64,000 bases of DNA, from positions 65,194 to 129,193 of the forward strand of contig JAJFKN010000055.1 in the NCBI GenBank assembly GCA_021773195.1, given 5' to 3'. The stretch comes from Gammaproteobacteria bacterium. Lineage in GTDB: Bacteria > Pseudomonadota > Gammaproteobacteria > JAKBBU01. The notes under the pieces are model-generated. The model was not told where the DNA came from. It ran no database searches and saw nothing but the letters and a program-made list of their open reading frames with translations. The position numbers and the translations under genes were made by a program. How positions within the stretch are numbered: the stretch's first letter is position 1; every line of letters starts with the position of its first letter. Shown one piece after another: positions 24,474 through 25,949 of this stretch.

Positions 24474-24668
24474 CTAAGGCTGCAGAAAATTTGCGTTTGC
24501 TACATCAACCCAGCACCGCACGGCGTTCTGACCATTTTCAACGGCTTCTGCAATGTTATCACCGTCGGAGCAACAGCTCGGCAGATCAGGAAATTCAATA
24601 AAATAACCACCACCTTCTTCATCCGTAAGATGACGAATTGAAAAAGGGTATTCAAGGTTACTCATCAC
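24474..24668 (-). CDS. HicB/UPF0150-fold small protein (64 aa) directly downstream of Fic
   Basis: YPFSIRHLTDEEGGGYFIEFPDLPSCCSDGDNIAEAVENGQNAV matches the HicB N-terminal domain pattern (Y..E.GGY...FPDLPGC...G.T.EEA..NA). Confidence 0.55.
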   Translation of the reverse strand: MMSNLEYPFSIRHLTDEEGGGYFIEFPDLPSCCSDGDNIAEAVENGQNAVRCWVDVANANFLQP

Positions 24669-24713
24669 ATGCCTCCAGCAGCTTAATTAATACAACATTT
24701 GATATAGATGGCC

Positions 24714-25949
24714 TTAATATTTGTTGTCAGGAAATAACCCCGGCATCCAACGGGATGCTAAGGTTGCAGGAAAAGCAAGATGGAATGACGTCTTATGGCT
24801 TTCAGAAAAGAGAATGCCCTGTTCCAGTAAAACAGCAGTAATACGTCTTGCACTACGCTCACTAATATTGAGAATATTAGCTATTTCGTTGCGTTGCAGT
24901 TCGCCACGATAGAGTATAGCTTCTAGTACAATATTAGATTTTTGTGGCAATTTATTCAATCGTATGGCTTCTTCTGCCCAAATTAATATGCGTTCTCTGA
25001 GTTCATTAGGCTGTATAAGTTTTTCCATAAAATCGATTTGGTCAAGACAAGCTTCTAAGAAAAATTTTGTAAAATCCACTAAACATGATTCACTCAAATG
25101 ACCTCTGCCATCTAGAACATTGCGTTTAGGTAAATCACAGGCAGCTAAATGTGCTTTATACGCTTGTTCGTTCCTGGCAAGACCACGAGAAATTGACCAG
25201 ATGCCACCTGAATTTAGGGTTTGCTCAAGCATGGCATGTGACATTAGTCTCGCAACACGGCCATTCCCATCAATGAAAGGATGTAACCAAAGTAGGCGGT
25301 GATGTGCTGTTGCTGCCGCTATAATAGAATCCATTTTTCCCAATCTTGCGTACGCCTGCTCAAAACGTTCTAAAAAGCGAGGCAAAGAACCTGGGCTAAC
25401 AGGGACATGCCTGCCAACTACCACATCGTATTTGCGTATCGTTCCTGGCTTTATTTTAATACGTTTTTTAGTCTGAGGATCTTGGGCCCAAAGCATATCG
25501 ATTGGAAGCAATTCACAAAAATGGCGGTGAATGCTAAGTATACTCTGGCTTGCTGCAGGGTGTTTTTCAAGACCGCCTTCATCGATCCAGCATTGAGTCT
25601 TGATGTGGGCTTTTGCTTCAAGTTGCAGGTCGCGTTTGTTTGGATTTTGGCTGTAGTCATTATTTAGAGCGCGCTCAATATCGATGGGGTGTGTATTGTG
25701 TCCTTCTATGAGGTTACTATAATAGCAATTCATTGAACGTATTAAGTTGCGAAGAGCGGTGGACACGCCTTCAGGCAAGCTCTTTCTGAGGCTCGTTGAT
25801 TTCGCTGTGAGCTCCAAGGATAAATCAGCAAGTTCACCACGGTGAGGTGAGCCTTCGCTTATGTTAAGTGGCTCAATCATAGCTATGGATTCACCACGGT
25901 CGTTGGCCTTGGATTTGGCCGCATTAATGGCCAGTTTATTATCTCTCAT
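24714..25949 (-). CDS. Fic-family AMPylase/phosphocholine-transferase-type enzyme. Class II, with an internal N-terminal inhibitory helix and a C-terminal winged-helix.
   Basis: The Fic motif HPFIDGNGRVARL is preceded by an inhibitory-helix motif SNLIEG ((S/T)xxxE(G/N)). There is a C-terminal wHTH-like segment. Confidence 0.85.
   Translation of the reverse strand: MRDNKLAINAAKSKANDRGESIAMIEPLNISEGSPHRGELADLSLELTAKSTSLRKSLPEGVSTALRNLIRSMNCYYSNLIEGHNTHPIDIERALNNDYSQNPNKRDLQLEAKAHIKTQCWIDEGGLEKHPAASQSILSIHRHFCELLPIDMLWAQDPQTKKRIKIKPGTIRKYDVVVGRHVPVSPGSLPRFLERFEQAYARLGKMDSIIAAATAHHRLLWLHPFIDGNGRVARLMSHAMLEQTLNSGGIWSISRGLARNEQAYKAHLAACDLPKRNVLDGRGHLSESCLVDFTKFFLEACLDQIDFMEKLIQPNELRERILIWAEEAIRLNKLPQKSNIVLEAILYRGELQRNEIANILNISERSARRITAVLLEQGILFSESHKTSFHLAFPATLASRWMPGLFPDNKY

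Follow-up and report, generated by a model that had tools for sequence, protein, structure and literature searches.

Does a Fic gene that is followed closely, and on the same strand, by a small open reading frame (ORF) with a HicB-like fold form a functional pair with that ORF? The question is raised by a locus in a 64,000-nucleotide stretch of contig JAJFKN010000055.1 (positions 65,194 to 129,193; assembly GCA_021773195.1) from a Gammaproteobacteria bacterium; we call the whole stretch the window, and positions are counted from its first letter. A sequence-only reading of this DNA had described a class II Fic enzyme encoded immediately upstream of a 64-aa ORF with the HicB N-domain fold, had presented the two as a meaningful and possibly new pairing, and had considered the small protein to be either an orphaned antitoxin fragment or a Fic accessory factor. 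Inspection of the sequence and its ORFs confirmed both ORFs, their coordinates and their features as described; the two are close and on the same strand as stated, but the gap from the Fic stop to the start of the small ORF, given as 46 bp, measures 45 nt. Our analyses indicate that the 64-aa ORF is very probably what is left of a hicB gene, namely its 5' half, in a degraded hicAB toxin-antitoxin (TA) cassette, and that the two genes most likely lie side by side as a by-product of decay and not as a functional pair.

The assignment of the 64-aa ORF to the HicB N-domain was upheld by family profiles. The ORF matches Pfam HicB_lk_antitox (PF15919) with E=3.8e-8 and 34 bits against a cut-off of 27, and the match covers only positions 1-47 of the 123 in the profile. 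NCBIfam gave no match for the small ORF, and PADLOC gave none for the small ORF, for the phosphatase (PTP) gene that converges on it or for a YhgA-like gene of the window. When the 64-aa ORF was used as query in a word-indexed homologue search, it found nothing but itself. HMMER, run exhaustively over 1.84 billion representatives, recovered 1529 relatives at E<=0.001; the best show 60-66% identity across about 55 residues, and almost all are longer than the ORF, at 73-150 aa, and match through their N-terminal part. The consensus of this HicB subfamily reads YPFxIRxLxxEEGGGYLIEFPDLPGCxSDGETIEEAIxNGxDAxxCWI..., and complete members then have a linker and a ribbon-helix-helix (RHH) domain (...GKWVQRVPKSLHAxLxxxAxxEGVSLNTLV...). 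Against a hidden Markov model (HMM) of the full-length relatives, the small ORF aligns with positions 1-58 of 119 (E=1.4e-28), and a DNA profile of the 5' half of hicB matches 24666-24496 (E=9e-37). The other half, hicB positions 59-119, which holds the RHH domain, had no match nearby in any frame, and the DNA profile of the hicB 3' half found none in the region either. The last seven codons of the ORF have no relation to hicB, so that hicB was cut off by a deletion or a replacement and not by a nonsense mutation; from this breakpoint to the PTP stop the distance is 45 nt. We refer to the surviving part as hicB'. The sequence-only reading had stated that alignment of the ORF as the decayed tail of a longer hicB would speak against its proposal, and the ORF does align as a decayed part of a longer hicB, but as the head and not the tail. 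A structure model of the mini-protein computed without an alignment was uninformative (pLDDT 52).

The relatives of the small ORF point to the kind of cassette from which it came. We fetched 80 genomic loci of the closest HicB relatives, 78 of which were analysed for gene length, with a median of 119 aa. A hicA gene of ~80 aa lies within 60 nt upstream of the hicB start in 55 of 66 full-length relatives, compared with 1 of 11 truncated copies, and in the full-length relatives the stop of this ~80-aa gene overlaps the hicB start. All three of the upstream proteins that were scanned match Pfam HicA_toxin (PF07927; E from 4e-6 to 3e-5), one of them above the gathering score. The subfamily profile also matches the solved HicB proteins 6U0I, 6HPB and 6G26, with E of about 1e-8, and no Fic homologue occurs within 4 kb in any of the 80 HicB-relative loci. 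Judged from gene order and profile matches, the family of the small ORF is canonical hicAB: the mini-protein is homologous to the HicA-binding N-domain of HicB from E. coli (6HPB/6U0I) and Burkholderia pseudomallei (6G26/6G1N), and the genes of its relatives overlap with hicA in operons of the usual hicA-hicB type. The locus differs from those systems in that the RHH half is gone, as is hicA except for a relic of ~60 nt; it is what remains of a TA module and no longer a working one.

Truncated copies of this HicB subfamily recur. They occur in 11 of the 78 loci, with lengths of 64-91 aa and heterogeneous neighbours, and the single one that keeps its hicA has a frameshifted hicA. An independent 64-aa truncated HicB is found without hicA in a Legionella sp. 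metagenome-assembled genome, with an rpoS-like sigma factor gene on one side and rmuC on the other (locus L149, 2910-3119). In three Poribacteria species (loci L168, L184 and L203, about 4001-4240), a truncated HicB of 69-78 aa has the same location, directly upstream of a gene of ~310-320 aa that is related from locus to locus and by eye is histone-deacetylase-like; this truncated orphan has persisted across speciation.

The sequence-only reading was right that the small ORF has no hicA partner, and the 64-kb window contains no intact hicA. What that reading could not see is that the 3' end of a hicA gene survives as a recognisable relic in the gap downstream of Fic. With a DNA profile built from the final 90 nt of the relatives' hicA, the best match in the window on both strands is 24718-24670 (E=0.099), directly upstream of hicB' and in the correct orientation. 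When 12 nt of hicB were added to the profile, the match became 24718-24658 with E=0.009, and the alignment shows a 5-nt deletion. Limited to the ~100 nt where the end of hicA is expected, such a search would make the match highly significant. The relic translates as NIKAIYIK, a frameshift, and then VVLIKLLEACDE and a stop, where HicA has PIKPVYVKKFVALIxLLExxDE and a stop; these protein remnants match the most conserved C-terminal motif of HicA. Together with the extent of the hicB alignment, the relic bears out the option of an orphaned antitoxin fragment.

The junction with Fic is compact. The relic contains the stop of Fic (24714-24716), the GGAGG that precedes hicB' (24672-24676, in the 'LLE' codons) and its own TAA stop (24658-24660), which overlaps the ATG of hicB'. 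Read out of frame, the ATT-AAG (Ile-Lys) codons of the relic supply the TAA that ends Fic. The conserved C-terminus of Fic stops at ...WMPGLFPD (24726), after which the orthologues carry a variable tail of 1-7 residues; here the variable tail consists of the three residues NKY, the last codon of which overlaps the relic DNA together with the stop. The position of the conserved Fic end and of the Fic stop inside the relic therefore places the breakpoint a few bases from the end of the functional Fic coding sequence. Clean insertion of Fic into hicA was considered and rejected: the 5' part of hicA is not present on the far side of Fic, so the event was a deletion or replacement.

We looked for the association of the two genes in other genomes. 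More than 8000 database clusters match Fic at E<=1e-20; among the matches listed, identities are 61-69% and the proteins are named 'Fic family protein'. The best match other than Fic itself is 69% identical, and its contig has different neighbours. Our set of Fic loci comprised 80 genomic loci (58-66% identical; from Proteobacteria, Acidobacteriota and others) and three metagenomic contigs, giving 83 loci and 824 kb, and its neighbourhoods were searched in all six frames with family HMMs. HicA had no match in these loci; HicB had one, 1.2 kb from Fic and behind an SDR gene, and in none of the 83 does HicB or HicA directly adjoin Fic. The neighbours of Fic are not conserved on either side in the 80 genomic loci, and no small same-strand downstream ORF is common to the orthologues in the 74 loci with enough downstream sequence. 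The absence of the small ORF from orthologous loci (0 of 83), which the sequence-only reading had itself named as an observation that would speak against its proposal, and the lack of Fic at the 80 HicB-relative loci give no support to a meaningful Fic-HicB pairing. The only other contig with the small ORF, Logan contig SRR15505513 (L081), is 100% identical at the DNA level and therefore is not independent evidence.

Some neighbours of Fic orthologues are worth recording. An ArdA anti-restriction gene lies upstream of one of them (locus L218, 1368-1880), and the spurious ORFs GIEP..RCSTAEL downstream of two others (L009 and L047) look by eye like translated tRNA genes. Such tRNA-like or ArdA neighbours fit a mobile, stand-alone gene, and they hint that the Fic family may travel on integrative or conjugative elements.

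The description of the Fic enzyme itself as class II, with an in-cis SNLIEG helix and a catalytic motif, was correct. The ORF matches Pfam Fic with E=5.7e-14. Its catalytic motif follows the HxFx(D/E)GNGRxxR definition (PMC3667792), and both this motif and all six residues of SNLIEG are invariant in alignments of Fic orthologues (26 and 32 sequences). SNLIEG precedes the Fic core within one chain, the arrangement that defines class II (PMC3667792, PMC10628234), and on this basis the protein belongs to that class; class II Fic proteins are kept inactive by their own glutamate-bearing helix (PMC3667792). The C-terminal winged helix-turn-helix (wHTH) of the sequence-only reading was recovered by structure prediction: an AlphaFold2 model built from an alignment of 32 sequences (pLDDT 83.7, pTM 0.84) contains its elements as helices 338-348, 353-360 and 364-376 and a strand at 389-391. 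The top PDB matches of the model in Foldseek are full-length class II Fic-wHTH proteins, namely 7XUX (TM 0.67/0.75), SoFic (3EQX/3ZEC/3ZCN), 7CB8 and CbFic2 (8CIL), and locally the C-terminal part also gives Foldseek matches to wHTH regulators, among them BigR, MarR-family proteins and CadC, with probabilities of 0.94-0.99.

Compared with the known class II Fic-wHTH proteins (SoFic 3EQX, Coxiella CbFic2 8CIL [PMC10628234], 7XUX and Mycobacterium marinum 7CB8), the window Fic has the same motif pair and three-part architecture, with TM values of 0.55-0.75. It differs in being only 15-17% identical to them over the structural alignments and in belonging to its own large orthologue group (58-69% identical across Proteobacteria and Acidobacteriota), for which neither a structure nor a target is known. 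Residues 52-384 match the PADLOC SoFic model (E=1.7e-29), but the NCBIfam SoFic equivalog NF046030 is not passed (29.7 bits against a cut-off of 550), which makes the protein SoFic-like in architecture and not a SoFic orthologue. From its motifs and predicted fold, Fic is a stand-alone, self-inhibited class II (SoFic-like) predicted AMP-transferase with a DNA-binding wHTH. Fic carries its own inhibitory helix, which would leave no mechanistic need for the mini-protein, and its orthologues have no conserved partner gene.

Relatives and solved HicAB systems allow us to propose how the locus arose. The ancestral cassette would have consisted of an ~80-aa HicA toxin gene overlapping the start of an ~119-aa HicB, the N-domain of which would have bound and neutralised HicA while its C-terminal RHH domain bound the operator. 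At this locus, rearrangements took away hicA except for its last ~20 codons, and hicB beyond codon ~57, so that the Fic ORF now ends inside the hicA relic and hicB' is squeezed between the Fic and phosphatase genes. If expressed by read-through from Fic, hicB' would yield a HicA-binding domain that has neither a DNA-binding and dimerisation domain nor a cognate toxin, and this product would most likely have no activity, or would at most act as a left-over 'sponge' for HicA. TA loci in decay commonly leave orphan antitoxins behind (PMC7192599); as in the Klebsiella survey of that report, an antitoxin ORF here outlives its toxin gene, and the context on at least one of its sides has nothing to do with a valid TA pair, with the difference that the antitoxin at this locus is also truncated.

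It is important to note that several observations weigh against such a simple history of decay. hicB' is intact over 171 homologous nt, has a strong GGAGG and keeps all 11 family-invariant residues, and the presence of an intact hicB' beside an indel-bearing hicA relic hints at a recent event or at some selection on hicB'. Fic and hicB' are tightly joined, with no terminator-like site between them, and hicB' is probably transcribed with Fic. The hicA profile used alone reaches only E=0.099 window-wide and is convincing only given its exact position and orientation. The collections hold no close relative of the source genome, the best FtsX match being only 47% identical among 185,579 species genomes, and the ancestral state of the locus is thus not directly observable. 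In addition, a SoFic-type Fic followed by a small antitoxin gene has been published before: a 2025 report describes EcSofic as toxic despite its inhibitory helix and neutralised by AS1, a 47-aa protein encoded just downstream (PMC12249575).

The first of these observations could be explained by selection unrelated to Fic, in which the hicAB remnant would be retained as an orphan antitoxin that neutralises HicA encoded elsewhere or on incoming mobile elements. In favour of such retention, the ORF is intact, its ribosome-binding site is good and no family-invariant residue has been lost, whereas the hicA relic next to it has an indel, and anti-addiction roles have been proposed for orphan antitoxins (PMC7192599); truncated subfamily copies recur, including at the same place in the three Poribacteria species. 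The sequence of the domain itself argues in the opposite direction. The N-domain of hicB' scores 97.9 bits, against at least 110 for the 63 full-length members and at least 107.5 for the 12 short copies, the lowest value of all, and it carries the changes G31S and D48N at near-invariant positions. The RHH domain is missing, and in solved HicB (PDB 6HPB, 6G26) this domain also mediates dimerisation. No intact hicA is available in the window as a target, the only other hicA there being a pseudogene, and we regard retention of this kind as unlikely. The case of a genuine stand-alone mini-HicB of the UPF0150 type, which was never part of a hicAB operon, is the least credible. Single-domain HicB/UPF0150-like proteins of about 60-75 aa are present in databases, and Pfam keeps a separate UPF0150-like model; the closest relatives, however, are two-domain and hicA-linked, the homology ends abruptly at codon ~57 before seven unrelated codons, and the hicA 3' relic directly upstream largely refutes this origin.

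The EcSofic precedent gives some weight to a third possibility, that the HicB N-domain was captured by the adjacent Fic and, being co-transcribed with it, modulates how toxic or how stable it is, in the manner of AS1 and EcSofic. There is a match between the window Fic and the PADLOC SoFic model, the two genes share a strand across a gap of 45 nt with no terminator-like site, and in both systems a SoFic-type class II Fic is followed directly, on its own strand, by a small ORF. The two systems also differ: AS1 has 47 aa and no reported domain, whereas the ORF here is a HicB N-domain of hicAB ancestry, and it is absent from all orthologous Fic loci (0 of 74-83). EcSofic (PDB 9VJC) is itself only distantly related to the window Fic (E=6.6e-4, core only). 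The class I Fic TA modules VbhT-VbhA and FicT-FicA (PMC3667792) likewise combine a Fic gene with an adjacent small gene; there the small protein supplies the inhibitory helix, whereas here Fic has the helix. The mini-protein has no [ST]xxxE[GN] Fic-inhibitory motif, its nearest strings being LTDEEG and AEAVEN, and so cannot work in the way of class I Fic antitoxins. The pairing is unique to this locus, being found at none of the 83 Fic orthologue loci or the 80 HicB-relative loci, the Fic family has no conserved small downstream ORF, and from the hicA relic it is evident that the small gene came in with a hicAB cassette. With no conserved partner, no inhibitory motif and a hicAB ancestry, the accessory-factor role envisaged by the sequence-only reading is not supported, and we consider co-option by Fic very improbable. 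If it were true, it would represent a route by which class II Fic enzymes gain trans-acting regulators, and this locus would be a newborn Fic-HicB-fold module caught at its origin.

With decay of a hicAB cassette as the favoured explanation, the 63-aa ORF should be annotated as a truncated or orphan hicB remnant and Fic as a stand-alone class II SoFic-like Fic. The locus would then be an example of TA decay in which the toxin was lost first and the antitoxin truncated later, leaving the Fic and phosphatase genes to abut the remnants, and it would illustrate that tight same-strand adjacency can come from decay alone. The finding is an ordinary one, with little import beyond correct annotation. 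The coordinates of the features discussed are given in Table 1.

Table 1. Positions of the features of the Fic-hicB' locus and of related genes in the window.
Feature	Positions	Strand	Details and basis
hicB' (HicB N-domain, residues 1-57)	24496-24668	minus	family HMM, PF15919, DNA profile
Non-homologous tail NANFLQP and stop	24474-24495	minus	hicB homology ends near 24496
Small ORF	24474-24668	minus	64 aa from GTG, or 63 aa from ATG at 24665
hicA 3'-end relic	24658-24721	minus	about 20 codons, 5-nt deletion; DNA profile and conceptual translation
Fic gene	24714-25949	minus	411 aa, class II SoFic-like
Fic C-terminal wHTH, about residues 335-400	24750-24947	minus	model, Foldseek and weak Pfam HTH_28 match (E=0.024)
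Catalytic motif HPFIDGNGRVAR, codons of residues 223-234	25248-25283	minus	matches HxFx[DE]GNGRxxR (regular expression and direct reading)
Inhibitory motif SNLIEG, codons of residues 78-83	25701-25718	minus	sole [ST]xxxE[GN] match in Fic
PTP gene	22393-24450	plus	685 aa, convergent with small ORF; Pfam Y_phosphatase E=5.7e-10, HCSLGLGRT motif
Truncated lysR	21858-22274	plus	HTH domain only; Pfam HTH_1 E=2.6e-20, no substrate-binding domain
Second hicB, intact	59341-59691	minus	116 aa, PF05534 E=4e-15
Second hicA, dead	about 59689-59934	minus	in-frame TAG after ...LLVGLGY, out-of-frame start; conceptual translation PF07927 E=6e-9

The spacing between these features is tight. The GGAGG lies 6 nt 5' of the ATG of the small ORF, and 23 nt separate the end of the PTP gene from the stop of the small ORF. 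We found no terminator-like or promoter-like site in the gap between Fic and the small ORF, which makes it probable that hicB' is transcribed with Fic; from the sequence, co-transcription of the two is plausible. A GC profile, a repeat search and an Rfam scan of the region identified no mobile-element boundaries and no RNA elements.

Gene loss is also evident elsewhere in the source genome. On the far side of the PTP gene, the truncated lysR encodes about 97 aa from MNITIRQLQVF and ends 118 nt before the PTP start. Two truncated genes, lysR and hicB', thus point into the PTP gene, which suggests that DNA bearing PTP replaced their 3' parts; the GC content of the 5' half of PTP is 0.36-0.40, against 0.42 for the window. 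At 59341-59936 on the minus strand lies another hicAB cassette, whose intact hicB belongs to a different subfamily and whose hicA is dead; this cassette and the truncated lysR repeat the decay seen beside Fic and speak for the favoured explanation.

Other genes of the window point to the lifestyle of the organism. The PTP protein has its phosphatase core at about residues 180-300 and a long, low-complexity C-terminal half rich in Ser, Asp and Gly, and it looks like a eukaryote-directed effector. A host-associated gammaproteobacterium without a close sequenced relative is suggested by this protein together with a YhgA/Rpn-like gene (27464-28375; PF04754, E=3e-33) and two large ORFs on the minus strand, one of 1206 aa (60105-63725) and one of 688 aa (57006-59072), in which there are, judged by eye, putative ankyrin-type repeats.

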